Shown: positions 9,127 to 51,404 of the stretch, in pieces | Layout: the number at the start of each line of letters is the position of its first letter | Numbering within the stretch: position 1 is the stretch's first letter | Source: Candidatus Acetothermia bacterium | GTDB taxonomy: Bacteria > Bipolaricaulota > Bipolaricaulia > RBG-16-55-9 > DRXL01 | DNA length: 64,000 bases | Assembly (NCBI GenBank): GCA_016179105.1 | Contig: JACOSB010000120.1 | Location: 489 to 64,488, forward strand | Reading direction: 5' to 3' | Notes under the pieces: generated by a model | What the model was told of the DNA's origin: nothing | The model's database searches: none | What the model saw: the letters and a program-made list of their open reading frames with translations, nothing else | Program-made: the position numbers and the translations under genes

Positions 9127-12100
9127 CTATAACTTCTGTTCAAGTGCGTACTCGATCGCTTGCTCCAGCGTCATCGCGCGGCCTTCGGCCCAAGCCGCAT
9201 CCGATGCTTTTTCACTTAGCCGAGAACGAGCTGCTGATACACGGTGCTCGTAGCCCGCGCGCTCTGCCGGGGTCAAGGGTGCACGAACCGCTTCTCGCAA
9301 CGCTTCAGCCTCTCCGAATAACGTGAGCGCGCGCTCTGGCTGTCCTCGAGCGCTGGCGACAGCAGCCAATCCCTCTAACGAATAGATAAGACCCTGCTTA
9401 CTTCCTACTTCTCGGAATAAAGCCAAACTTTGCTCATGGAATGATCGCGCGGCTGTATAATCCCCTTGAGCACACGCCACGAGCCCCAAATTGTCTATGA
9501 CTAACGCTATGCCGGACTTGTTTCCTACTTCACGGTGCAGGGCCAGACTTTCCTGCAGCCGAGCGCGCGCTGTCTCGTAGTCACCCTGGTATAAAGCTGT
9601 ACTCCCTAGGTTATTCAACATGACGGCAATCCCTCGATTGTCTCGCAACTCGTGCTTGATGGCGAGACTCTCTTCGTACAGAGAACGCGCGGTGGCATAG
9701 TCTCCTTGAGCATCGGCCACTTGCCCCAAGTTACTGAGCAGATTCGCAATCCTCTCCTTGTCTCCTAATTGGCGGAAGAGCTGCAAGCTATGCTCCAGGA
9801 GCTCTCGCGCTTTCGCATAATCTCCTTGGTAATGGGCAATCATTCCCAAACTGCTCAGCGTAAGCGTCATCGTATGTTGATCTCCTAGCTCTTGTTCGAT
9901 CGCCAAGCTTTCTTCAAAGAGAGGGCGTGCCGCTTCATAATCTCCCTGACTGTATACGATCAAGCCCAAGTTATGGAGAGCCGCCGCGAGGGTTTTGGGG
10001 TTGCCCAGCTCACGGACAAGAGTGAGGTTTTCTTGAAGCAGGGAGCGCGCCCTGACATAATCACCCTGCAATGAGGCCATAATGCCCACACAGGTAAGCG
10101 CTTTGGATTTTACGTCAGCCGGAACCGTAGTACTGGAGGCTGCCAGCATCGCTTCGGCCCATTGGCGTCCTTCGCTCAGCGGGCCATGCAGATGCCAAAA
10201 TCGCCAGACCGCTGCCATCATTCGTACCCCTTGTTCGACCAACCCTCCTTCAAGGGACCACGCCAGCGCTGCTCTCAGGTTGTTGCGCTCTTGCTCGAGT
10301 TTTTCGAGCCAGCGCTTCTGATTCGATCCCTTCAGCTCTGGCTCGGCCCGCTCAGCTAATTTCATAAACCATTCCAAGTGCTGAGAGCGAATTGCTTCTA
10401 GCTCTTGTGCGCCACGCAGTTTCTCTTGAGCATACTCTCGCACGGTCTCCAATAGCCGATAGCGCATCTCGGGGGCGCGTCGCTCAACGATCACCAAAGA
10501 TTTCTGGACCAAGCGACTGAGGAGGTCCAGGACTTTATGTTGCTCAACGTCCGATTCACCGTTGTAGGGGCGAGATAACCTCGCCCCTACACCCTGGGCA
10601 CACACGCCCTCCACTGCCTCCAACGTAAATCCTCCGGCAAAGACCGAAAGCCGACGTAGCAACGCCTTTTCATTCTCTGAGAGCAATTCCCAACTCCAGT
10701 CCATGGTGGCCCGCAGCGTCTGGTGCTGAGGCAGAGCCGCACGGCGATGACTCGCGAGCAACCCAAACCGATCTGCCAGCCGATCGGCGATCTGCGGGAT
10801 CGATAAGACATTGAGTCGTGCAGCCGCGAGTTCAATCGCCAAGGGCAACCCCTCGAGTTGCTGACAAATGCGAGCCACGTCCCGCGCGTTCTCCGGCGTG
10901 AGAGCAAATCCCGGCTGGCTCACCAGTGCTCGGGTGATAAAAAGACTCACCGCTTCATACTGCGCCAAGATCTTCGGAGCCGGCAGAGGCTCTCGATCGG
11001 GCATAGAGAGCGGCGGCACGGACCAGACCGTCTCTCCGTCTAGTCCCAAGGCCGCGCGGCTCGTAGCTAGAATCTGCAAGTTCGCGCAATTTTCTAAGAG
11101 TATTTTAATTAACTCCGCACACGCGTCTATCAGATGTTCACAATTATCTAAGACAAGGAGCGTCTGCTTGAGTCGCAGATGATCCGAGAGAATCCCTAAA
11201 GTAGGACGATCTGGATGCTCGCGCAGGCCGAGTGCCGAAGCGACGGTCTTCGCGACCAATGTCGGGTCGAACAAAACGCCCAGTTCGACCCACCAGATTC
11301 CGTCAGGAAAATCGGGAAGCACGTCGGTGGCCACTTGGAGAGCGAGTCGGGTTTTGCCGCTGCCCCCCATACCAGTCAGCATCAACAGTCGTGTCTGTAG
11401 GGGCGACCGGCCGGTCGCCCCATCCGTGAGCAAGCGTTTGACCTCAATGATCTCCCTCTCTCGCCCAACGAAACTGGTGAGCGCTGACGGGAGATTGTTG
11501 GGATAAACATATGGAAATGCGGCGACTTCGCCGTTAGAAATTTGCTCTTGCACGGCACGCAACTCGTGAGATGGCTCGGCTTGCAAATGCGTCTTCAGTG
11601 CCTCGACACACTGCTGGTACGTTTGCGAGGCAAGCGCCTGCGCTCCAGCGTGATAATGAAAGAGCATTTTTTGCCGAACGATACCTTCGTTCCAAGGCTG
11701 GAGCGCGAGCGCCCGCTCGCAGCACGCGATCGCACGATCGAGCTGGCGCAGGCGTGCATGAACGTCGGCAAGCCGAGCGAGTGCTTTTAGAAAAAGCTCA
11801 CGCCAACGTTCACGGGGAGCGAGCGTCCACTCTTCATAAAGGTCTTCAGTGAGAAAATCGCCCTGATAAAGTGCGACGGCTCGTTGATAGTTTTCTAGAG
11901 CTTGGAGCCAGCGCCCGGCTTGTTCGGCCTCGTGAGCATCCTGAAAAAATTTCTGAAATGCTTCGGTATCGAGCCAGCACGGAACGTCTTTACTAAAGCA
12001 ATAGCCTTGCAATTTGACGTGTAGGATGAATCGAGAATCTGTGCCCTTTTTGAGCTCCGGCTCCAGAAGGCGGCGCAGCTCGCTGATCCGTCCATGCAAG

Positions 12101-12312
12101 CTGAGCACGGCCTTTCCTAAATCCATCTCTGAAAAGAGCGCTTCGATCAACTGATCTTGCGTGAAGAAGCGACCGCGCTCCGTGAGCAATAGTTTTAGGA
12201 GTTGCTGGGTCTTGCGTTGAGGCCAAGCTTGCAGGGGCGACAGCGTTTTCCCGAGCTGCACTGTGAAGTGCCCGAGCATCGTGATTCGGAGCAAAAGCTC
12301 GTTCATGTTCAA
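9127..12312 (-). CDS. AfsR/SARP-family STAND transcriptional regulator (OmpR-type wHTH + BTAD + NB-ARC/AAA ATPase + TPR array), paralog A
   Basis: N-terminal MLGHFTVQLG wHTH and a BTAD region. Walker A GMGGSGKTRLALQVA. The C-terminus carries about 8 TPR-like repeats of pattern QGDYxxAxxLxEESLxxxRELGD. Transcribed divergently from the fibre-gene block. Confidence 0.8.
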   Translation of the reverse strand: MNMNELLLRITMLGHFTVQLGKTLSPLQAWPQRKTQQLLKLLLTERGRFFTQDQLIEALFSEMDLGKAVLSLHGRISELRRLLEPELKKGTDSRFILHVKLQGYCFSKDVPCWLDTEAFQKFFQDAHEAEQAGRWLQALENYQRAVALYQGDFLTEDLYEEWTLAPRERWRELFLKALARLADVHARLRQLDRAIACCERALALQPWNEGIVRQKMLFHYHAGAQALASQTYQQCVEALKTHLQAEPSHELRAVQEQISNGEVAAFPYVYPNNLPSALTSFVGREREIIEVKRLLTDGATGRSPLQTRLLMLTGMGGSGKTRLALQVATDVLPDFPDGIWWVELGVLFDPTLVAKTVASALGLREHPDRPTLGILSDHLRLKQTLLVLDNCEHLIDACAELIKILLENCANLQILATSRAALGLDGETVWSVPPLSMPDREPLPAPKILAQYEAVSLFITRALVSQPGFALTPENARDVARICQQLEGLPLAIELAAARLNVLSIPQIADRLADRFGLLASHRRAALPQHQTLRATMDWSWELLSENEKALLRRLSVFAGGFTLEAVEGVCAQGVGARLSRPYNGESDVEQHKVLDLLSRLVQKSLVIVERRAPEMRYRLLETVREYAQEKLRGAQELEAIRSQHLEWFMKLAERAEPELKGSNQKRWLEKLEQERNNLRAALAWSLEGGLVEQGVRMMAAVWRFWHLHGPLSEGRQWAEAMLAASSTTVPADVKSKALTCVGIMASLQGDYVRARSLLQENLTLVRELGNPKTLAAALHNLGLIVYSQGDYEAARPLFEESLAIEQELGDQHTMTLTLSSLGMIAHYQGDYAKARELLEHSLQLFRQLGDKERIANLLSNLGQVADAQGDYATARSLYEESLAIKHELRDNRGIAVMLNNLGSTALYQGDYETARARLQESLALHREVGNKSGIALVIDNLGLVACAQGDYTAARSFHEQSLALFREVGSKQGLIYSLEGLAAVASARGQPERALTLFGEAEALREAVRAPLTPAERAGYEHRVSAARSRLSEKASDAAWAEGRAMTLEQAIEYALEQKL
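10564..10590. repeat. GTAGGGGCGAG-loop-CTCGCCCCTAC palindromic element copy lying in-frame inside regulator A CDS
   Basis: gtaggggcgag ataac ctcgcccctac. In the gene frame it is translated as ...QGVGARLSRPYN... Confidence 0.6.
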
Positions 12313-12513
12313 TCCTATCGCTGCCCACTGATCTCGATCTTATCTAACAATCAAGGCGTTGCCAAATGGTTGAGTCAGTCCTCCCCTGTCCATCCAACGG
12401 GGAAGGCCGGCGCGAAGCGCAGGTGGGGCTTGGCCCCCATCCCTGGCCCTTCCCCCCGTAGTGACCCACAGAGGGGAAGGGAAACGATCTCCCAGTAGTC
12501 GTTTTTTTATCTT

Positions 12514-12551: not shown

Positions 12552-12779
12552 ATGTCTGAGCAAACGATCACCCAGACAAAGGAGTGGAAGCCGATGAGCT
12601 TTATCGTGCGATTTCACCCGGCTCTGCCGGACGGTCAAGAGGACTGGCGCGGCCAGGTCGAGCATGTGCAGACGGGCGAGAAGCGTCCCTTTCGCGGAGC
12701 GCAGCAGCTTATGCAAATCATGGAAAGTTTCTTTGAGCTTGAAGCGAAAGAACTGAATACCGAGGAGGTAAGGCCATGA
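12552..12779 (+). CDS. small hypothetical protein (62-75 aa) translationally coupled to the first fibre gene
   Basis: Its stop overlaps the ATG at 12776 (ATGA). An internal start with an AAGGAG RBS exists at 12591. No recognisable domain. Confidence 0.4.
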   Translation: MSEQTITQTKEWKPMSFIVRFHPALPDGQEDWRGQVEHVQTGEKRPFRGAQQLMQIMESFFELEAKELNTEEVRP

Positions 12780-12805
12780 ACATTCGGAACTTAAAGGAGC
12801 CGGTG

Positions 12806-14326
12806 ATGAAGAATTTCAGAGTGCGGCAGATGTGGGTGGCGGTGTTGACAACCATCTTGATCGTGGCGGGATCAATCGGACTGGCCGAAGCCAAGGCGCT
12901 GTTCGTCGCGAACAACGGACTGGATATCGCTACGTGTGGAGCCATCGCGAGTCCCTGTCGCACGATTAGCAAGGCAATTGAGAACGCTGACCCTGGAGAT
13001 AAGATCATCGTCGGTCCGGGGCGTTATGGGGATCTCGACGGAGATGGAACATTCAATCCGATCCTGGGAGAAGAAAAGGCAGAAGTAGGCACGGGTTGCT
13101 TCTGCATGATCAAACTGGACAAGCCCTTGGACATCGAATCACGGGATGGGGCTGCTGCCACCGTGCTGGATGGCGGCAAAGAACTCAGCGCCGTGGTGGG
13201 CATCTTCGCCAGCAATGTCGTCTTTGGCAGGAAAAAGAAGGGCTTCACTCTCACCCACGGAAACCTCGGCATGTACATCAATTTTGGAACGAGTGGGGTA
13301 AGAGTGGAAGGCAACCTCGTCAGCGCCAATAGCACCCTTGGTTTCAGGATCCATGGCAACGGACATGTGCTTAGCAGCAATCTCGTCATCGCCGACGGCT
13401 TGACGGGTTTCGAACTTAACGACAGCGGACTTGTGCTAAACGGTAACCAAGCTATCGCCAATATGCTTGGTTTCGTCCTTAACGGGAGCGGACATCAATT
13501 GTCGGGCAACATAGCTAGCGCTAATAGCGACAAGGGTTTCGCGATAGGAGGCAATGGGGGGCATCACTTCAGCAGCAATGTCGCCAGTGCTAATGGGACT
13601 GGCTTCGATGTCGCTTTCGGCAATAGTAATGTGTTCACCGGCAACATTGTCCATGGGAATCGCTCCCATGGCTTTTTGATCGAGAGTGGCGCTGGACATA
13701 TGCTCACGGGCAACTCTATTCTGGGCAACGGAGGGTTCGGCATCGATCTAAGTTCTGGCGCCGGTGCCACCATCACCAAGAATAACATCTATGGCAATGG
13801 CGAGGGGCTGCGAGATGACTCGGGGGCAGAAACCAATGCAACCAACAACTTCTGGGGCGCCGCCACTGGGCCTGGGGACAATCCGGCAGACGGGCTCTTG
13901 ATCGGCCCGACCAGCAACACGATCTTCACCCCTTTTGCGACCAAGGAGTTCAAGATCAAGACGGTCACGCCTCTAGCAGAGCCGGGACTCATCATCCTGA
14001 CTGATCCTGAGCAGAGCGAGATTCCGCAAGCCCCTAGTCTGACACCCATTCAGTTCTTGAAAGCGCTGCAAACCAAAGAGGGGTGGCTCTTCCGCACGAC
14101 TGGGAATGTGAGCGCACTGCGGCTGGAGGTCATGGACTTATCCGGCAAGAAAATCTATGACAGTGGGCTCGTGAAGGGACAAACGCTCAGTTGGACTCGT
14201 GTCAACGCAAAAGACCAATCCGTCGCTAAGGGGGTGTATCTCTACCGGCTCACAGCACGCGATCGAGATGGCAATGAAATTCACAGTGAGCTACGCAAGC
14301 TCATCATCGAAAATTTCTTTGAGTAG
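12806..14326 (+). CDS. secreted right-handed parallel beta-helix (PbH1/NosD-like) repeat protein with C-terminal FlgD-Ig/T9SS-CTD-like domain
   Basis: Signal peptide MKNFRVRQMWVAVLTTILIVAGSIGLAEA. At least 9 tandem ~22-aa GNxxxxNxxxGF repeats. C-terminal ...GVYLYRLTARDRDGNEIHSELRKLII. An alternative start at 12776 is also RBS-supported. Confidence 0.7.
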   Translation: MKNFRVRQMWVAVLTTILIVAGSIGLAEAKALFVANNGLDIATCGAIASPCRTISKAIENADPGDKIIVGPGRYGDLDGDGTFNPILGEEKAEVGTGCFCMIKLDKPLDIESRDGAAATVLDGGKELSAVVGIFASNVVFGRKKKGFTLTHGNLGMYINFGTSGVRVEGNLVSANSTLGFRIHGNGHVLSSNLVIADGLTGFELNDSGLVLNGNQAIANMLGFVLNGSGHQLSGNIASANSDKGFAIGGNGGHHFSSNVASANGTGFDVAFGNSNVFTGNIVHGNRSHGFLIESGAGHMLTGNSILGNGGFGIDLSSGAGATITKNNIYGNGEGLRDDSGAETNATNNFWGAATGPGDNPADGLLIGPTSNTIFTPFATKEFKIKTVTPLAEPGLIILTDPEQSEIPQAPSLTPIQFLKALQTKEGWLFRTTGNVSALRLEVMDLSGKKIYDSGLVKGQTLSWTRVNAKDQSVAKGVYLYRLTARDRDGNEIHSELRKLIIENFFE

Positions 14327-14344
14327 GCGTATTCACTAAAACTC

Positions 14345-14364
14345 CCCGCTTTACTGAAAGCGGG
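14345..14364 (+). terminator. perfect 8-bp stem hairpin (cccgcttt-actg-aaagcggg) between fibre genes, possible attenuator/processing site
   Basis: Seen directly in the sequence. There is no U-tract, so probably not a strong intrinsic terminator. Confidence 0.25.
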
Positions 14365-14383
14365 CAATTCCTAAGGAGGAATC

Positions 14384-15163
14384 ATGAATCGTTTCTTAAC
14401 GTTAACGGCTGTGGCGTTCGTTGGCGTGGTGATTTGCGTTGGATCGGCTCAGGCTCAGAACACCATTGTGAAAGTCAATTTTCAATACGCGGTCAAGTTT
14501 GTCTGTGGCCAGAGTGCAGAAGACCATTTACAGGCAGTCAAGGGGATTTACACGACAGCGGTGAACGTGCACAATCCGGGTGTGTTTAACGCGGTCTTCG
14601 CTGAGAAAATAGCCATCGCGCGCCCTCAAGAAATAGCTGGACCCATTTCGAAATTCCGATTATCTCAATTGCCATCGGATGCCGCCTTCGAACTAACTTG
14701 CGAGGAGTTTTCCTCAGATACACAGACCAAATTTGTCACCGGTTTTCTGGTGATCGAAAGCCCTGTGGAACTGGATATCACAGCGGTTTACACCGCCCGA
14801 CCGAGTGATGGCGAGGTCAGCACGATCGACGTAGAAACCATCGCATCTCGTAAGGTGCGCCTCACACTATCGGTCGAGCCAGGGCCACAAGCGGACATCT
14901 CTCTGGTTAACAGCCACGGGCAGTTACACTTTAATGTGATGGGTTTGGAGTGGCAAGTTCAGTCCACAGCGTTGTCTGTCTTTGATTTACAAGGAAAGAT
15001 CGTCTACACGTCGGGCAACATCCAAGGCGCTGCACTAAACTGGAATTTCACTGCGACGAATGGACGAGCGGTGGCCAACGGTGTCTACCTGGCAGTGATT
15101 ACCGCCAGAGGCAAACTAGGTCAGCTGATCACTTCGACGCGAAAAATTGCAGTTTCTCGTTAA
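14384..15163 (+). CDS. secreted protein with C-terminal FlgD-Ig/T9SS-CTD-like beta-sandwich (GVYLAVITA motif)
   Basis: Good RBS (aaggagg). Signal peptide MNRFLTLTAVAFVGVVICVGSAQA. The C-terminal ~70 aa align with the Ig-like module of neighbouring genes. Confidence 0.6.
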   Translation: MNRFLTLTAVAFVGVVICVGSAQAQNTIVKVNFQYAVKFVCGQSAEDHLQAVKGIYTTAVNVHNPGVFNAVFAEKIAIARPQEIAGPISKFRLSQLPSDAAFELTCEEFSSDTQTKFVTGFLVIESPVELDITAVYTARPSDGEVSTIDVETIASRKVRLTLSVEPGPQADISLVNSHGQLHFNVMGLEWQVQSTALSVFDLQGKIVYTSGNIQGAALNWNFTATNGRAVANGVYLAVITARGKLGQLITSTRKIAVSR

Positions 15164-15221
15164 GCACACGGGTGAGCGTTGTGTCGAAAATAATACTTTA
15201 CTAGACGATAAGGAGGTCGCC

Positions 15222-17038
15222 ATGACGCATGTACGCGGAGTTGGTATCTGGCTGGCTGGGTTCGTCCTGGCACTCAGCAGTATGGCCACAACAAGTTGGG
15301 CGGCAGGCCAAGGACCATCCTTCAGCGTCCTTGTCGAGGAGCAAGCTTCAGGGTATCGCTTCTCGGTTCAAGCAGAGGACGTCACTTCAGTTCGGGTCGC
15401 CATCTTGCGCCTGGATGGTCGACGGGTCTTCCAGAGCGATTGGATCGTGGGTCCTACAGTCACCTGGCCGCTCGCAACATCATCCAATCAGACTCCCGCC
15501 CGCGGAGTCTATCTGTACGCGGTGAGCGCTCGCGATCAACACGACCGTGAGCAACGCAAACTGGGCAAGTTGGTCGTTTCCTTCGGAGCGGAGTCCTCAC
15601 TGAGCCTGCCTAGCTTGGACCAGTTAGCAGGGAGTCAGCCTTCGGCCCTTCCCAGCGGAGTGAAGTGGAAAGAGCTTTTAGGCAAAGACAGTTTGGACAA
15701 TTTCCGCATCCAGCGCCAGCCTGGCAAAGGGCAAGCTTTCCAAAACTTGCTCACGCTGGACAATGCCGGGAATTTGAGCGTGGCGCAACTCTGCTTGAGT
15801 GAAGTCTGCCTCGCGAGCTGGCCTAGTGGGGGAGGAGGCACTTTCACGTTAGCAGATGGGTCCGTCACGTTAGCCAAGCTGGCGAACCAGGACTGCGGGG
15901 CGGGCAACGCGATCCGGGGCTGGACCGGTGGAGTGTGCTGAACTGTGCCAGTCTTGGGGGCGGAGGGACACCCAGTGGCTGGGTCGATGACGGTACAGTC
16001 GTACGGTTGGCAGACGCAACAGACAAGGTCGGCATCGGGACGACGGGACCACAAAACTTACTAACTATCGGTCCAAATCCATCTGCTGCCTCCAATGCGA
16101 ATGAATTATTACAGTTGGCAAAGAACGAAGACGCATATATGACGATACGAGATGGAACTGCTACTGCTCTTTTGGGCACTACTAGCGGTCTTCCCTTCGT
16201 TGGTAGCCAATCGAATCATGACTTTACCATTCGCACGAACAATGCAGAGAAGGTCAGGATTACAACAAGCGGCAACGTCGGCATCGGGACTATTAGCCCC
16301 AATACGCGGTTGGAAGTGCAAGGCCCGGATACAAATCTTGACACGAAAGCCTTCAAGGTTAGCAACTCAATTGGCTTTGCCGGGTTGATCGTTTGGGACG
16401 ACGGAACTGTGCAAATCGGGACCCTTGTCGACAACCCGAAGACACAACATGCTTGCCTGACCCTCGGACTTTATTTCGCCACGTGCAGTTCCGCCGCCGA
16501 GTATGTTCCCACTGTTGATGAAGGACAGGGTTATCCCATCGCGGGTGATTTAGTCAGTATCGCGCCCACCCTCAAGAATCCGTATAGCGATGATCACGGT
16601 CCCTTCGTGGTCGCCAAGACGAACAAGCCCTGCGACGAGAATCTAATCGGATTTATTCTCGACCCCAAGTTGGGTGCTGACGGCAAGAAACTCAACGAGC
16701 ACTATATGCCGCTCGGCATCTACGGCTACTTCCCTGCGAAAGTCACGATGGAGAATGGGCCTATTAAGCGCGGCGATCCGATCACGTCCAGTTCCAAACC
16801 CGGCTACGGGATGAAAGCGACGCAAGCCTGCAAGATCATCGGCTATGCGCTCGAAGACGCGGACAAAGAAGGTACGATTCAAGTCTTCGCGCATCTGAGC
16901 GAGAATGCCGCACCGGAAGTGACGGCGCTGCGTGCGAAAGTGAGCGAATTAGAGCAAGCAAGAGCTCAGGAGAACGAGGAGTTCCGCAAGAGAATCGAGA
17001 CGCTAGAGAAGATCGTAGCAAGGCTCACGGCTAAGTGA
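15222..17038 (+). pseudogene. fibre-family protein (type I N-terminal Ig-like domain + IGTTxP repeats + family-A C-terminal domain + coiled coil) interrupted by a frameshift at ~15931-15941
   Basis: ORFs 15147..15941 and 15935..17038 are collinear with the intact paralog 17933..19756. The paralog has GWTGGVLNCISVGGGG; here GWTGGVC* is followed by LNCASLGGGG in another frame. Nucleotide alignment shows 2 extra nt (gtgtGCtgaactg vs gtgttgaactg). Confidence 0.6.
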
Positions 17039-17065
17039 TGTGAATGGCTTCGGGGCTTGGTGGGA

Positions 17066-17518
17066 TCATTGCGACTCGGCAAGCCCCCACATGCCCAGCC
17101 ACTGTATCCGTTTGGCTAGCGGCGCGTGACTCAAAGCTTTCACCAGCCGTTGGTCCGCCGTGATGAAGACCGCATCGCGCTGCTCAGCCAATGCCACATA
17201 CAAAGCATCGTAGACGCTGCGCTGGTAAACCCGAGCAATCTCCCAGGCGCTCTCCACAAGGGAAAGCGACGCATACAGCTGAATCGGAAAGGAAGTACGA
17301 ATATGACCAAGAACCTGCTGCACCTCCGACGGTGCAAGCTCCCCGAGCCTGTGCTTCTTCCAAAGGATATTGCCCAACTCGGCCACAATCAGATCTGGCG
17401 CGAGCAGACGGCTGTCCTCCTCGGCAGCGGCTTCCAAAAATTGTTCGGCTTGGCCGGAGAGAACTTCCGGCAGATACCATTTGATCGCCACGCTGGCATC
17501 CACGACGAAGCGCTTCAT
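17066..17518 (-). CDS. vapC: PIN-domain toxin VapC
   Basis: MKRFVVDASVAIKWYLPE... carries the conserved acidic residues of a PIN domain. Overlaps the upstream antitoxin stop by 4 nt. Confidence 0.8.
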   Translation of the reverse strand: MKRFVVDASVAIKWYLPEVLSGQAEQFLEAAAEEDSRLLAPDLIVAELGNILWKKHRLGELAPSEVQQVLGHIRTSFPIQLYASLSLVESAWEIARVYQRSVYDALYVALAEQRDAVFITADQRLVKALSHAPLAKRIQWLGMWGLAESQ

Positions 17519-17751
17519 CGGCGGCGGTCCTCGCGCAGCAAGTGGACGCTGTCGCTGAAGGTGCGGCCGGAGCGGGTGAGCTTGCGGCGGAGTCGGCGGG
17601 TGCCGGCGAGCGCCTCGTGGGCCGAATGTTTTACGGAATCTTCCAAGATCGCTCTCAACTCTTGTTGGAGCGAGCGATGCTGTCGGATGGCACGTTCTTT
17701 GAGAGTCTTCAGCACCTTGTCGGGTACATCACGTATTAAGATATTGGGCAC
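17515..17751 (-). CDS. vapB: VapB-type antitoxin (ribbon-helix-helix/FitA-like), probable GTG start
   Basis: N-terminus (M)PNILIRDVPDKVLKTLKERAIRQHRSLQQELRAIL is a typical RHH antitoxin. AAAGGA RBS sits 8 nt upstream of the GTG. The longer ATG-initiated ORF (to 17808) is also possible. Confidence 0.6.
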   Translation of the reverse strand: MPNILIRDVPDKVLKTLKERAIRQHRSLQQELRAILEDSVKHSAHEALAGTRRLRRKLTRSGRTFSDSVHLLREDRRR

Positions 17752-17769
17752 AGTAGGATTCCTTTCTGA

Positions 17770-17786
17770 TGCTATCACAATGATAG
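17770..17786. promoter_or_regulatory. perfect inverted repeat GCTATCA-caa-TGATAGC immediately upstream of vapB, candidate autoregulatory operator
   Basis: Seen directly in the sequence. TA operons are typically autorepressed via palindromes at the promoter. Confidence 0.4.
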
Positions 17787-17806
17787 CAAAGGCTTCTATG
17801 GGGAGC

Positions 17807-17913
17807 AAAGAACCAATCCATCGCCAGCGGAGTTTATCTGTATCGACTCACCCCGCGCGATCGAGACGGCAATGAAACTCAGAGCGAGCTACGCAAGCTC
17901 ATCATCTTAAAGT
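17807..17913 (+). pseudogene. 3' remnant (last ~35 codons) of a beta-helix/Ig-like paralog of gene 12806..14326, truncated by the vapBC insertion
   Basis: Nucleotide and protein match to 14208..14326. Remnant KNQSIASGVYLYRLTPRDRDGNETQSELRKLIILK* versus KDQSVAKGVYLYRLTARDRDGNEIHSELRKLIIENFFE*. Confidence 0.6.
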
Positions 17914-17932
17914 AAACCAAAGGAGGTACACC

Positions 17933-19756
17933 ATGGCGCGTGTACGCAGAATCAGCATCTTATTGGCTGGGTTCGTCTTGGCACTCAGTAGTGTGAGCAC
18001 GACAACCGGGGCAGCAGATCCAGCAGCATCCTTCAATGTCCTCGTCGAGGAGCAAGCCTCCGAGTATCGCTTCTCGGTTCAAGCAGAGGGCGTAACTTCA
18101 GTGCGGGTCGCTATCTTGCGCTTGGATGGTCGACAGGTCTTTCAGAGCGATTGGGTCGCGGGTCAGACGGTTATCTGGTCACTTGCTACATCATCAAACC
18201 AGACTCCTACCAATGGAGTCTATCTGTACGCGGTGAGCGCTCGCGATCATCAGGGCCGTGAGCAACGCAAACTGGGTAAGCTGGTCGTTTTCTTCGGAGC
18301 GGAGTCCTCACTGAGCCTGCCTAGCTTGGACCAGTTAGCAGGGAGTCAGCCTTCGGCGCTTCCCAGCGGAGTGAAATGGCAAGAGAAATTGGGCAAAGAT
18401 AGCGTGGATAATTTTCGGATTCAGCGTCAGCCTGGCAAAGGACAGTCTTTCCAGAATTTGCTCATGCTGGACAATGCCGGAAATTTGAGCGTGGCGCAAC
18501 TCTGCTTGAGTGGAGTCTGCTTCGCCAGCTGGCCGAGTGGCGGAGGAGGAACCTTCACGTTAGCAGATGGGTCCGTCACTTTAGCCAAGCTGGCGAACCA
18601 GGACTGCGGAGCGGGCAATGCGATCCGGGGCTGGACCGGTGGCGTGTTGAACTGCATCAGTGTCGGAGGTGGGGGAGGAGTGCCCAGCGGCTGGGTCGAT
18701 GATGGCACGGTCGTACGGTTGGCTAATGCGACGGAGAGTGTCGGAATCGGCACAAACATACCTACGTCACTCTTGCACTTGCGCAAGGACGTGCCGGCGG
18801 GCCTCGGTCCAACGCTGACCTTGTACAATGGCGGCGGCAGCGGAGGTGCGGCGGACTCCATAGACTTTTTCACCTACTCGTCCCCCACCCCAACTTCGCC
18901 CACGGCTCGGATCATGAGCATTGATGACGGCAGCTTCAGTAATCACCTGGCATTTTTCACCAGGATTCCAGGGGACAATGGCAATGCGCTGTTGGAGCGG
19001 ATGCGGATCGCTTCGAACGGCGATGTCGGCATTACTGGCAACGTCGGCATCGGGACTACTAGCTCCCCTGGTCTGCGCCTGGCAGTCGTCGGCAACATCG
19101 GCAACACTAGTATCTTGGGACTGAATGTCTATAACGAAGGCTTTGTACAAATTGGCACCCTTTATGGCTCCTCCACCTTGCACGCATGTTATAGCACCAT
19201 CTTGCCTTTCGCCTTCGCCGCGTGCAGCTCGGCCGCCGAGTATGTGCCATCCATTGACAACGGTGCGGGTTTTCCCGAAACCGCCGACCTTGTAAGCATC
19301 GCGCCCGCCGTCACTAATCCTTACGGCGACACGCACGGCCCTTTCACCGTCCAGAAATCCACCATGTCGTGCGATCCGAACCTACTCGGCTTTATCGTGA
19401 AACCCGAATCGGGCGCCAACGGCAAGAAACTGAACGACCACTATCTCCCGCTCGCCATCTATGGCTACTTCCCGGCCAAAGTCACGCTGGAGAATGGGCC
19501 CATCAAGCGCGGGGATCCGATCACGTCTAGTTCCAAGCCAGGCTACGGAATGAAAGCAACGCAAGCCTGCAAGGTCATCGGCTATGCGCTCGAAGACGCA
19601 GACAAAGAAGGCACGATCCAAGTCTTCGCGCATCTGAGCGAGAATGCTGCGCCGGAAGTTGCAGCACTGCGAGCGCAGGTGCAAGAGTTGAAACAACAAT
19701 TACAACAAGTGCTCAGCCAGATAGAGACAATGAAAACCAAGGAGGGATCACGATGA
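17933..19756 (+). CDS. secreted fibre-family protein, type I N-terminal FlgD-Ig-like domain, Gly-rich/IGTTxP repeats, family-A C-terminal domain (CSSAAEYVP...KRGDPITSSSKPGYGMKATQACK) and terminal coiled coil
   Basis: RBS aaaggagg. Signal peptide. Intact counterpart of the frameshifted gene, with which it shares >85% nt identity in long stretches. Confidence 0.75.
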   Translation: MARVRRISILLAGFVLALSSVSTTTGAADPAASFNVLVEEQASEYRFSVQAEGVTSVRVAILRLDGRQVFQSDWVAGQTVIWSLATSSNQTPTNGVYLYAVSARDHQGREQRKLGKLVVFFGAESSLSLPSLDQLAGSQPSALPSGVKWQEKLGKDSVDNFRIQRQPGKGQSFQNLLMLDNAGNLSVAQLCLSGVCFASWPSGGGGTFTLADGSVTLAKLANQDCGAGNAIRGWTGGVLNCISVGGGGGVPSGWVDDGTVVRLANATESVGIGTNIPTSLLHLRKDVPAGLGPTLTLYNGGGSGGAADSIDFFTYSSPTPTSPTARIMSIDDGSFSNHLAFFTRIPGDNGNALLERMRIASNGDVGITGNVGIGTTSSPGLRLAVVGNIGNTSILGLNVYNEGFVQIGTLYGSSTLHACYSTILPFAFAACSSAAEYVPSIDNGAGFPETADLVSIAPAVTNPYGDTHGPFTVQKSTMSCDPNLLGFIVKPESGANGKKLNDHYLPLAIYGYFPAKVTLENGPIKRGDPITSSSKPGYGMKATQACKVIGYALEDADKEGTIQVFAHLSENAAPEVAALRAQVQELKQQLQQVLSQIETMKTKEGSR

Positions 19757-21894: not shown

Positions 21895-21920
21895 CTCAAA
21901 GTGAGAAACAGGAGGAAACA

Positions 21921-23804: not shown

Positions 23805-23870
23805 GTGAGGCTTCAGAGAACAAGAGCTGAGATGAGAAGGGCCGGGCAGCGTTCGCTTGGCCCTGTTTGC

Positions 23871-23898: not shown

Positions 23899-23906
23899 GG
23901 GACCAA

Positions 23907-33539: not shown

Positions 33540-33563
33540 CTTGCCCTCCTTAGGCGTCTAAAA

Positions 33564-37161: not shown

Positions 37162-37236
37162 ATCACTGAAAACACGGAAGAAAAACGGGTCGTTTTCCGT
37201 GCATTCTATGGGACTTCAGCGCTTTCCATGATTCTA

Positions 37237-37274
37237 TGTAACATATATTGCATAGATAAGAAATATATGTTACA
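37237..37274. promoter_or_regulatory. perfect 12-bp inverted repeat TGTAACATATAT-n14-ATATATGTTACA upstream of chrB, candidate operator/promoter
   Basis: Seen directly in the sequence, 25 bp before the chrB start. AT-rich, promoter-like. Confidence 0.35.
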
Positions 37275-37298
37275 ATGAGCCCATTTTAGGAGTGAACG

Positions 37299-38279: not shown

Positions 38280-38325
38280 AGTTCAGTTTTGTAATCCATT
38301 CAAAGTTTCGATCGGGAGGTACAAG

Positions 38326-40402: not shown

Positions 40403-40418
40403 CCAGCTGGAATTTGGG

Positions 40419-40457
40419 GTAGGGGCGAAGCATTTTCTGAAAATGCTTCGCCCCTAC
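40419..40457. repeat. GTAGGGGCGAAGCATTTT-ctg-AAAATGCTTCGCCCCTAC palindromic element (18-bp stem variant)
   Basis: Sits between the ChrB_C gene and chrA. Shares the GTAGGGGCGA...TCGCCCCTAC termini of the family. Confidence 0.55.
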
Positions 40458-40467
40458 AAGGAACGAT

Positions 40468-41682
40468 ATGGCTGAGATGGTCGAACGCTTAGAACCAACT
40501 CCTCCGCGCGAGCCATACGGGAAACTTTTCTGGCGGTTCTTGCGCTTTGGGATGCTCGCCTGGGGTGGGCCCGTCGCGCAGATCGCGATGATTCGCGAGG
40601 AGCTGGTGGAAGAGGAACGCTGGGTCTCAAGCGAGAAGTTCAACCGAGCATTAGCCTTATATCAAGCCCTTCCTGGCCCCGAAGCCCACGAGCTGTGCGT
40701 CTATTTCGGGATGACCGCACGGAGACGGTTCGGTGGGTTTCTGGCCGGGGCCGGGTTTATGCTGCCCGGCTTTGTGCTGATCTTTCTTCTCTCGTGGCTG
40801 TACGTGCAGTACGGCAGCGCCTTGGCTGCTTTGGCAGGGCTCTTTTATGGGATGCAACCGGCTGTCGCAGCGCTCATCGTTCGTGCTATCCATCGCATCG
40901 GGCAACATGCGCTGACAGATTACTGGCTGTGGGCGATCGCGATCTTGACCGGGATTGCGGATTTACTCGGCACGAGCTTCTGGGTGACGCTCCCGTTTGC
41001 AGGATTGGCTTATCTCTCGGTGAAGAGAGAAAAATATGCTTTCGCCGGGGCTCTGGGCATTGCCTTCATCGCGATTACAATTGCCTTCTCGCCTTTCGTA
41101 CACCTCATCATACCCGCACCAGCGTCTGATCTCTCGCTGCGTTCGAATGCATCTCTGCTGGCTCTCTTCGGCTCCGGGTTGCGCGCGGGGCTCCTCACGT
41201 TTGGCGGAGCCTACACAGCGATTCCGTTGTTGCAGCACGATGCCGTCGACGTGAACCATTGGATGACGAATGCGCAGTTTTTGGATGGGATTGCGCTGGG
41301 AGGGATTCTGCCAGCGCCATTGATTATCTTCGGGACGTTCGTGGGCTACATCGCTGGAGGAGCCTGGGGAGCACTGGTGATGACATTTGGGATCTTTTTG
41401 CCCGCATTTGGCTTCACGCTGATCGGTCATACCTATCTGGAAAAACTCATCGAACACAAAACGCTGCAAATTTTTTTGGATGGGCTCATGGCCGGAGTCG
41501 TCGGACTGATCGCATCGGCGGCGATAACGCTCTTCCGTACGGCGGTCACCGATCTGGTTGCGTTAGGGATTTTTCTGATTGCGCTATTGATCTTGTATCG
41601 CTGGCAAGCGAAAGCGGCTGTGGCTGTAATCATGCTCGCGGCGGGAGCAGCAGGACTCATCTTCCATGTCATGAGCAAATAA
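40468..41682 (+). CDS. chrA: chromate ion transporter ChrA (CHR family, two-domain)
   Basis: Internally duplicated membrane protein (GGPVAQIAMIREELV... / GGAYTAIPLLQHDAVD...) typical of long-chain ChrA. Confidence 0.8.
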   Translation: MAEMVERLEPTPPREPYGKLFWRFLRFGMLAWGGPVAQIAMIREELVEEERWVSSEKFNRALALYQALPGPEAHELCVYFGMTARRRFGGFLAGAGFMLPGFVLIFLLSWLYVQYGSALAALAGLFYGMQPAVAALIVRAIHRIGQHALTDYWLWAIAILTGIADLLGTSFWVTLPFAGLAYLSVKREKYAFAGALGIAFIAITIAFSPFVHLIIPAPASDLSLRSNASLLALFGSGLRAGLLTFGGAYTAIPLLQHDAVDVNHWMTNAQFLDGIALGGILPAPLIIFGTFVGYIAGGAWGALVMTFGIFLPAFGFTLIGHTYLEKLIEHKTLQIFLDGLMAGVVGLIASAAITLFRTAVTDLVALGIFLIALLILYRWQAKAAVAVIMLAAGAAGLIFHVMSK

Positions 41683-46720: not shown

Positions 46721-47635
46721 TTAATGGGCTCGCTGTAGCGCGTCCATGAGCTGGGCATACTCGTGCTTTCGACCCACAAACGGGACGCTCCCCGGCGAGA
46801 GCGCGTATGGAAACTCTATCGCTTGTGAGGACGGAGGGGGTCGGTCTACTTCAGGCACGTGGCCTGCTCGAATCTGTTCGTACAATTGCTTGATCTCGGG
46901 CGTAGGATCTGTTGCCAGCTCTTCCTTGAGCATCTTCACGCACTGCTCATAGGTGCGCGGCGCCTCGGCCTGATCCCCCGCAAGATAGTAGTACAGCATG
47001 AGCTGGCGATGGGTACTCTCTCGGAATTTTTCAAGCCGCAAGACATGACGATAGCATTCAATCGCGCGCCGGTACTGCCCTGAATGAACGTAGCAGTTTG
47101 CTAATTGTTTCAACAGATCGAGATGGGTCTCTTGCCATTTCTCGCGTACTGGGATGGCCCATTCTTCGGTGCGATCTTCGATCAAGTACTCTCCATCATG
47201 AGCTGAGCGGAGCGCGGTTTCGTAAGCATCAATGGCGGGAGAGATTTGTCCTTGATTCTGTAATTTTCGAGCCCGCTCATAATGCTGAAGGTATTCTTGG
47301 AAGTCGATCCTGCATTCGACCTTGGAGTTCCAGTAATAGCCCTGAGGTCTCTTGAGGAGAATGTAACGAGATTGGCCAAATTTTTTGAGCGAGGGCTCCA
47401 AGATCTTACGAAGCTTGCTGATGCGTTTGTAAAGATTCCCTTTTGCTTTTTTGAGATCAGTATGATGGTTCCAGAGAGCGTCGATGAGGTCTTCTATGCC
47501 AACAATTTGACCAGGCTGATTGAGTAATAGCTTCAGGATGACATCTGCTTTGCCGATCTGACGGATTTCATTTGTAATATCTTGATTGTCGTGCAGGACT
47601 CGGAAAGGTCCCAGCAGTCGAATATCCAAACCCAT
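46721..47635 (-). CDS. truncated SARP-family regulator (wHTH + BTAD only; NB-ARC/TPR portion absent)
   Basis: 304 aa collinear with the N-terminal ~300 aa of regulators A and B (LLGPFRV..., DTEEF.., YLAGDQAEA...). Ends at ...FVGRKHEYAQLMDALQRAH*, just before where the Walker A would follow. Confidence 0.65.
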   Translation of the reverse strand: MGLDIRLLGPFRVLHDNQDITNEIRQIGKADVILKLLLNQPGQIVGIEDLIDALWNHHTDLKKAKGNLYKRISKLRKILEPSLKKFGQSRYILLKRPQGYYWNSKVECRIDFQEYLQHYERARKLQNQGQISPAIDAYETALRSAHDGEYLIEDRTEEWAIPVREKWQETHLDLLKQLANCYVHSGQYRRAIECYRHVLRLEKFRESTHRQLMLYYYLAGDQAEAPRTYEQCVKMLKEELATDPTPEIKQLYEQIRAGHVPEVDRPPPSSQAIEFPYALSPGSVPFVGRKHEYAQLMDALQRAH

Positions 47636-47716: not shown

Positions 47717-48670
47717 TTATTCTCTTCGGTACGGTTGCCCGCTCTGCTTGGGGAAGCGCGCGTGCCCGATCGCAACTGCCACGACCGCAAGCGTCGCGAT
47801 GTACGGGAGCATCTTCACAAAGTTATGGAAGGCAAAGGGCAAGCACGGCTTGAGCTCCGAGACCGTGTCGATCCAAAGCGCGAGCGTGTCGAAGACGCCA
47901 AAGAGAAAGCCACCCAAGAGCGCGAGCAACGGATTCAATCCACTAAAAACGACGTTCGCGAGCGCGATGAAGCCGCGCCCCGCTGAGAGCTCTTTGGTGA
48001 TTGTGCTCAGCCAGTCAATACTGAGATATGCTCCCCCAAGTCCCGCGAGCGAGGCGCCGTAGATCACCGCGAAGAAGCGTGTGCGCTCTACAGAAATTCC
48101 GGCCACATCCGTCGCTTCCGGGTTCTCGCCCACAGCTTTGACGCGTAACCCCAGCACGGTCTTGTTCAATAAGAACCAAGTCAAGATCGCGATCAGAATC
48201 GTCGCCGGGATGAGCGGGCTGAGATCGCCTAAGGGCGTCTGCAGGGCCGGCACGCGCGCGGCCGGCGGCGCTTGGTGATAGCCCGCTGACTTCCAGACCG
48301 CCATGATGCCAAACGCGACGAACCCCAACGCAAAGAGATTGATCCCAATCCCGCTGATGACTTGGTCGCCTTTGAGCGGGATTGCGATCAGACCATGAAT
48401 CCAGCCGATGAGCGCCCCCGTGCCCAGGCCCGCCAGAAGGCCGATCCAGGGACTAGACGTCACTTCCGCGGCCCACAACGACGTGAACGCACTGATAAGT
48501 AGAATGCCTTCGAGGCCAATGTTGACGATGCCAGATTTTTCACTGAAAACTTCGCCGACGCTGGTCAGCGTGATCGGGACCATCGCGATGAGCGCCAGCC
48601 TCAGCAAGTCCGGCGCGGAGTTCCATAAGAGCGACAAGAATCCGACGAAATTGACAGTACACTCTTGCAT
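47717..48670 (-). CDS. BMP-family (nucleoside/simple-sugar type) ABC transporter permease, second permease
   Basis: The start was trimmed to the internal Met (MQECTVNFVGFLSLLW...) that lies 5 nt after the stop of the upstream permease. The 145-aa Arg-rich N-terminal extension in the ORF track is spurious. Confidence 0.7.
   Translation of the reverse strand: MQECTVNFVGFLSLLWNSAPDLLRLALIAMVPITLTSVGEVFSEKSGIVNIGLEGILLISAFTSLWAAEVTSSPWIGLLAGLGTGALIGWIHGLIAIPLKGDQVISGIGINLFALGFVAFGIMAVWKSAGYHQAPPAARVPALQTPLGDLSPLIPATILIAILTWFLLNKTVLGLRVKAVGENPEATDVAGISVERTRFFAVIYGASLAGLGGAYLSIDWLSTITKELSAGRGFIALANVVFSGLNPLLALLGGFLFGVFDTLALWIDTVSELKPCLPFAFHNFVKMLPYIATLAVVAVAIGHARFPKQSGQPYRRE
47835..47870. repeat. 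36-bp imperfect direct repeat, copy 2 (gcacggcttgagctccgagaccgtgtcgatccaaag)
   Basis: Lies inside the permease CDS and encodes LWIDTVSELKPC on the minus strand. Confidence 0.6.
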
Positions 48671-48675
48671 GGCGT

Positions 48676-49806
48676 TCAACCTCGCTTGCGCCGGAAAATC
48701 TTGAAAATACTCAATAATTCGGGAATCGCGAGCGTCAGGATGATCGCGCCCTGCACGACGCGCACCATCTCCAAGGGCACTTGAGCGGCGATCTGCATCT
48801 GGTTCGAGCCGGCGGAGAGCCCGCCCATGAAGATCGCGGCCACGATCGCGCCCAACGGATGGTTGCGCCCGATGAGCGCGACCGCGATTCCGTCGAACCC
48901 CAAATTCATCACGTTCGAGAGGTCTTCGTAGAGCGCATAGGTCGGCGGCCGACCCAGGATCTGCGTCGCTCCGGCTAGTCCCGCCGCAAGACCTCCGAGC
49001 ACGAACGACGCGATCATCGTGCGGGTCGGTCGTATCCCGCCGTAGCGTGACGCATCGGGGTTGAGCCCGACCGCGCGAATCTCGTAACCCAAGGCCGTCT
49101 GCCACAGAATCCAGTAAATAATTCCCGCGAAGAGCACGCTAACCAGAAGCGAAGCCGTCAGGTCCATTCCCGGCAGGATGGGAAGGAGCCGTGCGCTCTG
49201 AGCGATGCTGATCGACTTCTCGGCACGGTTGGGGTCGACGAGCGCCGTCGCGATCAGATAGTAGGCCAGATAGCGCCCGACCCAGTTCAACATGATGGTT
49301 GAGATAACTTCGTGTACGCCGCGGGTCGCTTTCAACAGGGCGACGGGAAGACTCCAGAGCGCGCCAGCGATCAGTGCGAAGAGAATTGAAACAAGAACAT
49401 GCAAGCCCGGCGGGAGAGAGAAGAGACTGGCTGCGACCGCGGCCATGGCCCCAATATAGACTTGGCCCTCGGCTCCGATATTAAATAGCCCAGCCCGGAT
49501 GCCGATGGCAAACGTGAGCCCGGTTAAAATCAAGGGAGTCGCGTTGGTCAGAGTGTTGGTCAGCTCGTAGAGGCCATATATGACCCCCGTCTCTTTGCAA
49601 GCATCGATGCCTTGTGAGAGTAAACATGAGAGGGCTTTCCCTATCGAGCCGAAATCTCCGAAGGCGCCTTGAAAGAGAGCAAGGTATGCTTTTACAGGGT
49701 CATACTTCCACAAGAGCATGAGAACAGCGCCGATTCCGAAACCCAAGAGCGCCGCGAAAAGCCCTTCGACCAAGGGCTTAAACCAGCCCCAGAGCTTGGT
49801 CCTCAT
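48676..49806 (-). CDS. BMP-family ABC transporter permease, first permease
   Basis: 376 aa, 8-10 TM. Overlaps the ATPase gene stop by 4 nt. Confidence 0.75.
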   Translation of the reverse strand: MRTKLWGWFKPLVEGLFAALLGFGIGAVLMLLWKYDPVKAYLALFQGAFGDFGSIGKALSCLLSQGIDACKETGVIYGLYELTNTLTNATPLILTGLTFAIGIRAGLFNIGAEGQVYIGAMAAVAASLFSLPPGLHVLVSILFALIAGALWSLPVALLKATRGVHEVISTIMLNWVGRYLAYYLIATALVDPNRAEKSISIAQSARLLPILPGMDLTASLLVSVLFAGIIYWILWQTALGYEIRAVGLNPDASRYGGIRPTRTMIASFVLGGLAAGLAGATQILGRPPTYALYEDLSNVMNLGFDGIAVALIGRNHPLGAIVAAIFMGGLSAGSNQMQIAAQVPLEMVRVVQGAIILTLAIPELLSIFKIFRRKRG

Positions 49807-51356: not shown

Positions 51357-51376
51357 GGTGTGTTTGCGAAAATTGT

Positions 51377-51404
51377 GTAGGGGCGCACAGCCGTGCGCCC
51401 CTAC
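51377..51404. repeat. GTAGGGGCGCAC-agcc-GTGCGCCCCTAC palindromic element variant
   Basis: Sits between the binding-protein gene and the ATPase gene of the ABC operon. 12-bp stem with the family termini GTAGGGGCG/CGCCCCTAC. Confidence 0.5.

Follow-up and report, generated by a model that had tools for sequence, protein, structure and literature searches.

A probable lineage-specific family of GTAG-headed REP elements in Candidatus Acetothermia, with copies past stop codons and in frame inside STAND regulator genes

Introduction

How does a short palindrome found just past stop codons come to lie, in frame, inside a protein-coding gene of the same region? This question is raised by a 64-kb stretch of DNA from a Candidatus Acetothermia bacterium (assembly GCA_016179105.1, contig JACOSB010000120.1, positions 489 to 64,488; hereafter the window), in which a small G+C-rich palindrome headed by GTAG recurs both at gene ends and within two large regulator genes. 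A first-pass annotation compared these palindromes with repetitive extragenic palindromic (REP) elements and proposed that one of them had been inserted into the linker of a regulator. The present analysis indicates that they very probably form a lineage-specific, GTAG-headed REP family of Candidatus Bipolaricaulota, the phylum to which the Acetothermia are assigned in the taxonomy database. For this family we propose an origin through a REP-associated tyrosine transposase (RAYT, or RayT), a role of the extragenic copies as 3′ hairpins, and a passenger status of the in-frame copies. The intragenic copies are insertions, in frame, relative to homologues in which the same sites are empty.

The palindrome family in the window

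A search of the window for the pattern GTAGGGGCG-N(3-30)-CGCCCCTAC returned five exact matches, at 10564-10590, 23871-23898, 32798-32824, 40419-40457, and 51377-51404, compared with 0 in 100 shuffles. These are the same five copies that the first-pass annotation had listed. Under a relaxed definition the count rises to eight, against a mean of 0.02 and a maximum of 1 in 200 first-order Markov simulations; the copies beyond the exact five were found through one-mismatch matches and the list of inverted repeats. The earlier figure of at least six copies therefore described a real family, but it overlooked two members, both in coding sequence (25201 and 11397). The degenerate copy that it included also exists, with a true span of 31571-31597 (GTAGGAGCGAGGTCACCTCGCCCCTGC) and not an end at 31595.

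Each unit is a single hairpin of 27-39 bp with a G+C-rich stem of 11-19 bp. Within a conserved outer module, GTAGGGGCG/CGCCCCTAC, the inner stems vary between copies yet stay complementary. The head is GTAG in seven copies of the eight and GTAA in the copy inside regulator B. As RNA, all copies are predicted to fold at -20 to -31 kcal/mol. The consensus element is open in two of the three frames on each strand, with the translations VGARSPRPY and xRGEVTSPL, and the third frame begins with TAG. Five of the eight copies are intergenic, in a window of which intergenic DNA makes up 8.5% (P of at least five in eight, ~2e-4), and all five lie 8-37 nt 3′ of a stop codon, as had been claimed for copies at gene ends and between convergent genes. 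The description as REP-like is likewise borne out by the GTAG head, the G+C-rich stem, the sites downstream of genes, and the occurrence of the same types in or beside RayT-family genes.

In-frame copies in two regulator genes

The other three copies lie in frame within two paralogous genes. Regulator A (9127-12312, minus strand) encodes a SARP/AfsR-like STAND protein of 1061 aa, in which Pfam recognizes Trans_reg_C, BTAD, NB-ARC, and TPR domains. Regulator B (23907-26978, minus strand; 1023 aa) has the same domain set and shares 49% identity with A. Two of the copies are in A and one is in B, which also has an extragenic copy past its stop codon; the earlier belief in just one intragenic copy was thus mistaken.

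The copy already known in A (site 2, 10564-10590) is 27 nt long with one stem mismatch, and it occupies the linker from the NB-ARC/winged-helix region to the TPR region. Its sequence on the coding (minus) strand is GTA GGG GCG AGG TTA TCT CGC CCC TAC, in frame, with the translation VGARLSRPY at residues 575-583; its hairpin is predicted at -26 kcal/mol (z -4.8). The second copy in A (site 1, 11397-11424, GTAGGGGCGACCGGCCGGTCGCCCCATC) is situated just N-terminal to the Walker-A strand. It retains a perfect 22-nt palindromic core, GGGGCGACCGGCCGGTCGCCCC, with GTAG at one end and a degraded GATG at the other. Its translation is DGATGRSPLQ (residues 297-306), opposite which the A/B alignment shows a gap of exactly 9 residues in B. 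The perfect form of this subtype, GTAGGGGCGACCGGCCGGTCGCCCCTAC, is present in metagenome locus L179. In B, the copy at 25201-25228 (GTAAGGGCGATTCGTGAATCGCCCTTAC) has perfect 13-bp arms (-20.3 kcal/mol, z -5.8), and the G-to-A change in its head is matched by a C-to-T change in its tail. Translation through the second open frame gives RKGDSRIALT (residues 584-593), and the site is homologous to that of the 10564 copy. Because B carries a different subtype in the other open frame at the same site, it is not an empty-site comparator. The linker of A is indeed ~6 aa longer than that of B, as stated before, but the comparison is misleading since B has its own copy there.

Empty sites were found among more distant homologues, which were compared in a 16-sequence alignment and in a survey of 120 homologues, with DNA for six of them. 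The best matches are Candidatus Acetothermia/Bipolaricaulia proteins; at the DNA level, a contig of GCA_016201315.1, a metagenome-assembled genome (MAG) of Candidatus Acetothermia, matches window positions 13377-19969 at 97.8% identity. When empty, site 1 measures 16 residues from F[IV]GR to the P-loop strand and site 2 measures 18 residues (AAEAVCAGEGIEEYEVLD-like), and both lengths are fixed in most of the 120 homologues, across phyla. Homologues with empty sites are P0010, P0014, P0019, P0033, and P0001, the last of which is empty at site 2. Among the 120, longer forms occur only in the Acetothermia-type top matches, and their 7-16 extra residues are translations of REP subtypes: DGATGRSPLQ, GVGAQHAAPL, or SVGANGRSPLH at site 1, and VGARSPRPY or (R/K)GDSR(I/T)A(P/L)T at site 2.

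The DNA of these homologues carries the elements themselves. P0008 has a perfect GTAGGGGCGAGGTCACCTCGCCCCTAC, identical to the intergenic copy at 32798, despite ~51% protein identity. The corresponding DNA of P0017 is GTAGGGGCGATTCGCGAATCGTCCCTAC, and P0011 has GTAGGAGCGAACGGCCGTTCGCCCCTGC at site 1, with a compensatory change from C:G to A:T relative to A. Decayed copies were seen as well, in P0012, at site 2 of P0011, and at site 1 of P0001. In P0012, the orthologue of B in locus L203, the intragenic copy has drifted and the extragenic copy is still a perfect palindrome. Perfect forms of all three intragenic subtypes are found elsewhere (L082, L163, and L179), and the same 27-mers occur three times in 15 kb of the related contig L082. 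As a negative control, 1.3 Mb of SARP loci from other phyla are nearly devoid of these 27-mers.

An AlphaFold model of regulator A, built on the 16-sequence alignment, has a mean predicted local distance difference test score (pLDDT) of 84.5 and five segments below 50. The two REP peptides correspond to two of these segments (301-305 and 575-589), both of which lie between secondary-structure elements. This predicted arrangement fits the idea that the peptides are tolerated passengers in flexible loops at domain boundaries. The tolerated in-frame insertion suggested by the first-pass annotation is therefore upheld, on firmer grounds than it had itself put forward, by the empty homologues, the REP-identical DNA, and the low-confidence loop in the model.

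Probable turnover at the two sites

Are these two loops sites of single events or of repeated ones? All six combinations of site 1 (present or absent) and site 2 (type 1, type 2, or none) are seen among the regulators. On a rough neighbour-joining (NJ) distance tree, types 1 and 2 are each spread over three distinct clades, and inserts at site 1 are found in three or more places. The tree has no support values, so that the resulting numbers of events, five or more for site 2 and three or more for site 1, are approximate.

The closest comparison is given by locus L001 (GCA_016201315.1), whose regulator is the nearest orthologue of A at ~90% nucleotide identity. Its site-1 copy is unchanged, and at site 2 it has the frame-2-type element GTAGGGGGGGGTCGCGAACCGCCTCTAC where A has the frame-1 subtype. 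At the same REP site, a 62-nt net deletion splits the L001 gene (7534-10240) into two ORFs (open reading frames). A block of 400 nt with 100% identity between the window and L001 ends at this site, and the rest of the gene is 81-94% identical. These features point to replacement or recombination at the L001 hairpin, with pseudogenisation or a chimeric MAG assembly as the alternatives. Comparison of the orthologues of A, which had been proposed as a check for strain-specificity, thus supports insertion but not a simple strain-specific distribution: an orthologue at ~90% has another subtype, and homologues at ~50% have the same one. From the scattered insert states on the tree and the different subtype at the same site in L001, the two sites are regarded as recurrent hot spots, and we infer repeated insertion or replacement rather than conversion between paralogues.

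Relation to RayT genes in metagenomes

Matches to the family are not confined to the window and its relatives. A metagenome scan with the pattern GTAGGGGCGAGG-N(1-8)-CCTCGCCCCTAC returned more than 120 stretches, which is a lower bound. Among the matches listed, the commonest form is the 28-mer GTAGGGGCGAGGCATGCCTCGCCCCTAC, the same as the copy at 23871, with at least 66 copies from many environments (loci L083-L202), and the host contigs range from 36 to 75% G+C. Constancy of the 28-mer across lineages, which is unusual for a 'junk' repeat, suggests either constraint by a cognate enzyme or horizontal spread.

Identical copies are located in or beside transposase-like genes. Exact 27-mers of the form GTAGGGGCGAGGT(C/A)ACCTCGCCCCTAC occur in L088 and L143. 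In L088, a RayT-like ORF (484-1077) contains the 27-mer in frame, after the HUH motif (PNHIHGII) and ahead of the C-terminal Tyr region; the 27-mer is a perfect palindrome, identical to the copy at 32798. A full RayT-like ORF in L143 (279-890) has a related nested GTAGGGGC palindrome in frame at the same position, and a truncated further RayT copy (1546-1815) starts directly after the 27-mer on that contig. Against Pfam Y1_Tnp, these two complete ORFs score 24.0 and 24.9 bits, just over the cut-off of 23, and they match NCBIfam REP_Tyr_transpos with E values of 1e-16 to 1e-17. A homologue search gave 6128 proteins (E<=1e-10), many of which are named 'REP element-mobilizing transposase RayT' by JGI. 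In at least 78 of the best 120 of these 6128 (P0121-P0240), a REP-encoded peptide follows immediately after the HUH motif NHIHGII. The peptides read RRGEVTSPL, RRGGSRTAPT, VGAQHAAPL, or VGARHASPL, types that are shared with the regulators, and VGAIHESPL is a further example. On this sequence evidence, the family appears to be tied to REP-associated tyrosine transposases. No description of a RayT with a REP inside its own ORF was found in the literature searched.

In-frame copies are not limited to regulators and transposases either. At L086 4117-4144, in an unrelated organism, a perfect REP lies in frame (VGARHASPLL) in the middle of queA, and the Pfam match to Queuosine_synth extends across the insert with an E value of 1e-92. 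Other long ORFs spanning REPs in high-GC metagenome contigs were set aside as Arg-rich artefacts, and the queA of L086 is the only such case accepted.

A wider reading can be offered tentatively, and we think it rather unlikely as a whole: the GTAGGGGCG palindromes might constitute a cross-phylum REP system in which RayT carries its cognate REP in its own ORF, and the hairpins might act in addition as exchangeable junctions in the STAND regulators of Bipolaricaulota. If the second part is true, hairpins at domain boundaries would be replaced in situ by other subtypes and would mark recombination breakpoints. REP turnover would then actively remodel coding sequence, beyond being merely tolerated in it.

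Proposed origin and function

How could one element give rise to both kinds of site? A RayT-type origin is the most likely one given the sequence identity with copies in RayT-family genes elsewhere. In this view, a REP-associated tyrosine transposase of the Y1 HUH type would make and spread the element by working on its hairpin in single-stranded form. Copies that land just past stop codons would persist, and when transcribed they may act as stable 3′ hairpins that protect the upstream mRNA or attenuate read-through. An intragenic copy can survive where the net length gained is divisible by three and the site is a flexible loop, because the element is free of stops in two of three frames on either strand. 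Two regulator loops have taken up copies in this way, one just before the P-loop strand and the other in the linker before the TPR region, and insertion or exchange there appears to have recurred. The peptides so added are most likely passengers and not functional modules.

The first-pass annotation had also mentioned terminators as a role for the copies at gene ends. No U-tract follows any copy on either strand, and a terminator scan of 21000-40900 reported none of the four REP sites there, with a total of 23 predictions compared with 20.7 expected from shuffles. A classical intrinsic terminator is therefore unlikely. Like Rho-independent terminators, the extragenic copies are stable G+C-rich hairpins past a stop codon; unlike them, they have no U-tract and share their sequence between sites. 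An Rfam scan detected only a tRNA, and no known RNA family over the REP sites.

Several observations weigh against the interpretation as a RayT-mobilised REP family. The GTAG tag is paired with the CTAC of the opposite end, so that it is symmetric and part of the stem in the predicted folds. All copies are singlets, and the window contains no pairs of the kinds called REPINs or bacterial interspersed mosaic elements (BIMEs). No target-site signature or flanking direct duplication is visible at the window copies. No Y1 transposase was detected in the window by Pfam on 43 ORFs or by a six-frame motif search, and no RAYT gene in ~100 kb of related Acetothermia loci, for which reason the link to the transposase rests on contigs of other organisms. 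Two Acetothermia loci, L207 and L208 (37 kb together), have 0 copies. Gene conversion between paralogues or chimeric MAG assembly could mimic some of the independent insertions. As for function, stabilisation of mRNA by the extragenic copies as 3′ hairpins is plausible, a role that we infer purely from what the copies are and where they lie.

Alternative explanations

It may be asked whether the regulator copies need many insertions at all. After one or two insertions, they could have spread mainly by homologous recombination, gene conversion, or horizontal transfer of segments, which is possible though doubtful. The window does contain at least two large regulator paralogues, and the whole B clade has one subtype at site 2, with drift in its member P0012, consistent with vertical descent; moreover, the block of 400 nt with 100% identity between A and its ~90% orthologue, ending at the REP in a gene that is otherwise 81-94% identical, is a signature of recombination. 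However, the same loop holds two frames and two lengths (27 nt for type 1 and 28 nt for type 2), so that at least two independent insertions are needed, and each type occupies three separate clades on the NJ tree. A perfect palindrome in P0008, identical to intergenic copies at ~51% protein identity, is also better explained by a fresh insertion. A related proposal is that the intragenic hairpins have been co-opted, either as mRNA hairpins at domain boundaries that make translation pause or let the product be processed into an N-terminal and a TPR protein, or as DNA hairpins that serve as recombination junctions for the shuffling of sensor (TPR) modules among paralogous regulators. Both sites are exactly at domain boundaries, in L001 the REP site is where the gene falls into two ORFs, the identical block ends there, and where P0012 departs from B in the stem, each change is a C-to-T transition after which the sense RNA can still pair as G·U. 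We nevertheless consider co-option improbable, since the copies have decayed in P0001, P0011, and, at the DNA level, P0012, and since the sites are empty in many homologues that look functional. An assembly error in the MAG may account for the L001 split, and the G·U observation concerns three transitions only, with a chance of ~1 in 8.

Two further explanations would remove mobility altogether. In one, the palindromes evolved in place, as terminators or as operators bound by the SARP regulators themselves or by another dimeric DNA-binding protein. Five copies directly past stop codons and four of the eight in or immediately beside the two regulator genes would agree with it. It is very improbable given the absence of U-tracts, a terminator scan with no match and a total at chance expectation, and the identical 27-28-mers in more than 120 metagenome stretches of 36-75% G+C, in RayT-like ORFs, and in queA; SARPs, in addition, are known to bind direct heptamer repeats and not palindromes. 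The other is the null that the first-pass annotation had set against itself, that the segment in regulator A is ancestral coding sequence, palindromic by chance. A related peptide at the same position in the diverged homologues P0008 and P0026 and, decayed, in P0011 would agree with this null. Yet most homologues, across phyla, lack the peptide and have the fixed 18-residue linker, the DNA matches intergenic members of the family, the nearest orthologue has a different element, and a near-perfect palindrome of 27 nt is not kept by chance through ~50% protein divergence. These points contradict the null; together, the DNA of the homologues and the perfect subtype forms elsewhere lead us to reject it as extremely improbable.

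Other classes of element were considered and ruled out. A miniature inverted-repeat transposable element (70-300 bp, with terminal inverted repeats related to insertion sequences and a target-site duplication) does not agree with a whole element that is a hairpin of 27-39 bp with no flanking duplication. CRISPR repeats would form a regular array, and there is none; intrinsic terminators were dismissed for want of a U-tract.

Comparison with known elements

The closest known elements are the GTAG REPs. As characterized in parts of the published survey, they are stem-loops of 20-40 bp with an unpaired terminal GTAG at one end only, located mostly downstream of ORFs, between convergent or unidirectional genes, and often near RAYT genes (PMC3733652). 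Families dominated by singletons exist, and dimers, REPINs, and BIMEs are common but not obligatory according to the same passages. In-frame intragenic GTAG REPs are documented there in several species of other phyla (Di Nocera et al. 2013, PMC3733652). Those of Opitutus terrae, Pseudomonas putida, Stenotrophomonas, and others add 7-30 residues (PMC3733652, Additional file 3), and their hosts are otherwise normal proteins, regulators and kinases among them, some of which were hit twice (PMC3733652). The window family is thus a further instance of a known phenomenon.

With the GTAG REPs and RAYTs (Nunvar et al. 2010, PMC2817692; Di Nocera et al. 2013, PMC3733652; Messing et al. 2012, PMC3479197), the window family shares G+C-rich stem-loops of 20-40 bp with terminal GTAG, subfamilies that differ by complementary stem changes, sites downstream of ORFs, and occasional in-frame copies; an association with Y1 HUH (RayT-family) genes is seen for the sequence type on metagenome contigs. 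It differs in that the tag is present on both strands (GTAG…CTAC) and within the stem, where the published tag is unpaired and at one end, in that all units are singlets, and in that no RAYT gene was detected in the window or the related Acetothermia loci. High copy numbers per genome, tens to hundreds, are expected for GTAG REPs from these sources; here, there are 8 copies in 64 kb. Bipolaricaulota are not among the phyla named in the survey passages (PMC3733652). Compared with the intragenic REPs of Di Nocera et al. in those passages, the present ones occupy the same two loops of one paralogous family with different subtypes and frames, and filled, empty, and decayed states can be compared across the gene tree. 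The RayT clade related to the family also differs from the REPtron: it has the REP in frame inside the ORF, and the REPs of a REPtron flank the gene.

Rickettsia palindromic elements (RPEs) resemble the window family only in tolerated in-frame insertion into protein-coding genes. RPEs are ~100-150 bp long and known only from Rickettsia; the window elements are 27-39 bp long, have a GTAG head, are mostly extragenic, and belong to Bipolaricaulota. Ogata and colleagues, writing in 2000, reportedly found RPEs inserted in frame at surface-exposed positions of proteins. In the survey passages, RPE-1 is referred to as 'longer palindromic insertions' (PMC3733652). Full-text searches of the literature turned up no paper of relevance on the sequence or on the peptides that it encodes, and nothing relevant on palindromic elements in Acetothermia.

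The results extend the GTAG-REP/RAYT system to an uncultivated phylum, Bipolaricaulota (Acetothermia). They also offer a natural series of unusual clarity, in which two protein loops are found empty, filled by an in-frame REP, filled by a replacement, or with a decayed copy, and from which the entry of mobile hairpins into coding sequence and their survival there can be studied. Since the phenomenon itself is already known, the parts of most value are this two-site hot-spot series in STAND regulators and the REP embedded in RayT. For annotation, peptides such as VGARSPRPY, RGEVTSPL, RGDSRxAPT, and VGARHASPL in predicted proteins can be taken as read-throughs of REPs.

Extragenic copies and their gene context

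The extragenic copies have convergent neighbours in one case, co-directional protein genes in three, and a co-directional pspA-like/tRNA gene pair in one; none lies between divergent genes. The copy between convergent genes (23871-23898) is the perfect 28-nt palindrome GTAGGGGCGAGGCATGCCTCGCCCCTAC, 8 nt past the stop of regulator B and 66 nt past the stop of ORF 21921-23804, with a hairpin predicted at -28 to -31 kcal/mol on either strand. Its orthologous copy in L203, after the stop of the B orthologue P0012, is again a perfect palindrome, with a compensatory change of AGG/CCT to ACG/CGT.

The degenerate copy at 31571-31597 lies between co-directional genes, with the stop of ORF 29336-31540 30 nt before it and the next gene 73 nt beyond it, and is predicted to fold at -20.1 kcal/mol. 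The pair of deviations GTAGGAGCG … CGCCCCTGC is common to this copy and to L205 6478-6505, the site-1 copy of P0011, which hints at an asymmetric sub-variant and not at random decay.

The pspA-like gene (32862-33539, minus strand) stops 37 nt before the perfect 27-nt copy GTAGGGGCGAGGTCACCTCGCCCCTAC at 32798-32824, and a tRNA gene (32679-32751, minus strand; Rfam, 68.6 bits) is 46 nt away on the other side. Only this copy is accompanied by a second small hairpin, with which the feature reaches 32848; this hairpin, on the side of the pspA-like gene, holds the half-site CGCCCTTAC at 32830-32838. The same 27-mer recurs identically inside the regulator coding sequence of L082 and in the RayT-like ORF of L088.

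The long-stem variant at 40419-40457 consists of 39 nt with perfect 19-bp arms (-31.5 kcal/mol, z -7.2). It is located between co-directional genes, 16 nt past the stop of a gene with a ChrB_C domain and 10 nt before the ATG of a chromate transporter gene. A purine-rich AAGGAA, possibly a ribosome-binding site, abuts the hairpin foot (40419-40467). In this arrangement, translation of chrA could be coupled to that of the upstream ChrB-domain gene, or be limited in comparison with it.

The variant at 51377-51404 (GTAGGGGCGCACAGCCGTGCGCCCCTAC, -26.4 kcal/mol) belongs to an ABC-transporter operon on the minus strand, where the substrate-binding-protein gene stops 17 nt before it and the ATPase gene starts 20 nt after it; the same 28-mer was found in metagenome locus L165. 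The interval between a substrate-binding-protein gene and the downstream ABC genes is a classical site for a REP that raises upstream expression, and Newbury and co-workers are said to have described in 1987 the malE-malF REP/BIME of E. coli as an example of 3′ mRNA stabilisers in operons. The 51377 copy resembles that element in position; it is a single hairpin, as are the other copies, and BIME clusters are absent.

Other features of the locus and of related contigs

Two related contigs, L082 (2-28) and L203 (3645-3671), end inside REP copies, as would be expected if the element is repeated there often enough to break short-read assemblies. In L207, which has no GTAGGGGCG elements, other palindromes (CCCCTCTCC…GGAGAGGGG-like) occur at 6079-6102, 15604-15626, 15931-15952, and 19535-19561. 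This suggests that distinct REP-like families exist in different lineages of Bipolaricaulota.

Adjoining the ABC-transporter operon of the window is a third, short SARP-type regulator gene (46721-47635, minus strand; 304 aa, with Trans_reg_C and BTAD only). Two ORFs at 47717-49105 and 48676-49806, both BPD_transp_2 permeases, overlap, and the start of the downstream one is probably over-called.

Each of the two large SARP/STAND regulators is divergently adjoined by a block of large ORFs (12776-23804 and 27050-31540), mostly without a Pfam match. The exceptions are 12776-14326, which matches Beta_helix/NosD, and 21921-23804, which matches Peptidase_S74. The regulator homologues in L001, L082, L205, and L207 have a conserved Beta_helix neighbour, and the blocks may represent regulated clusters of surface or secreted proteins.

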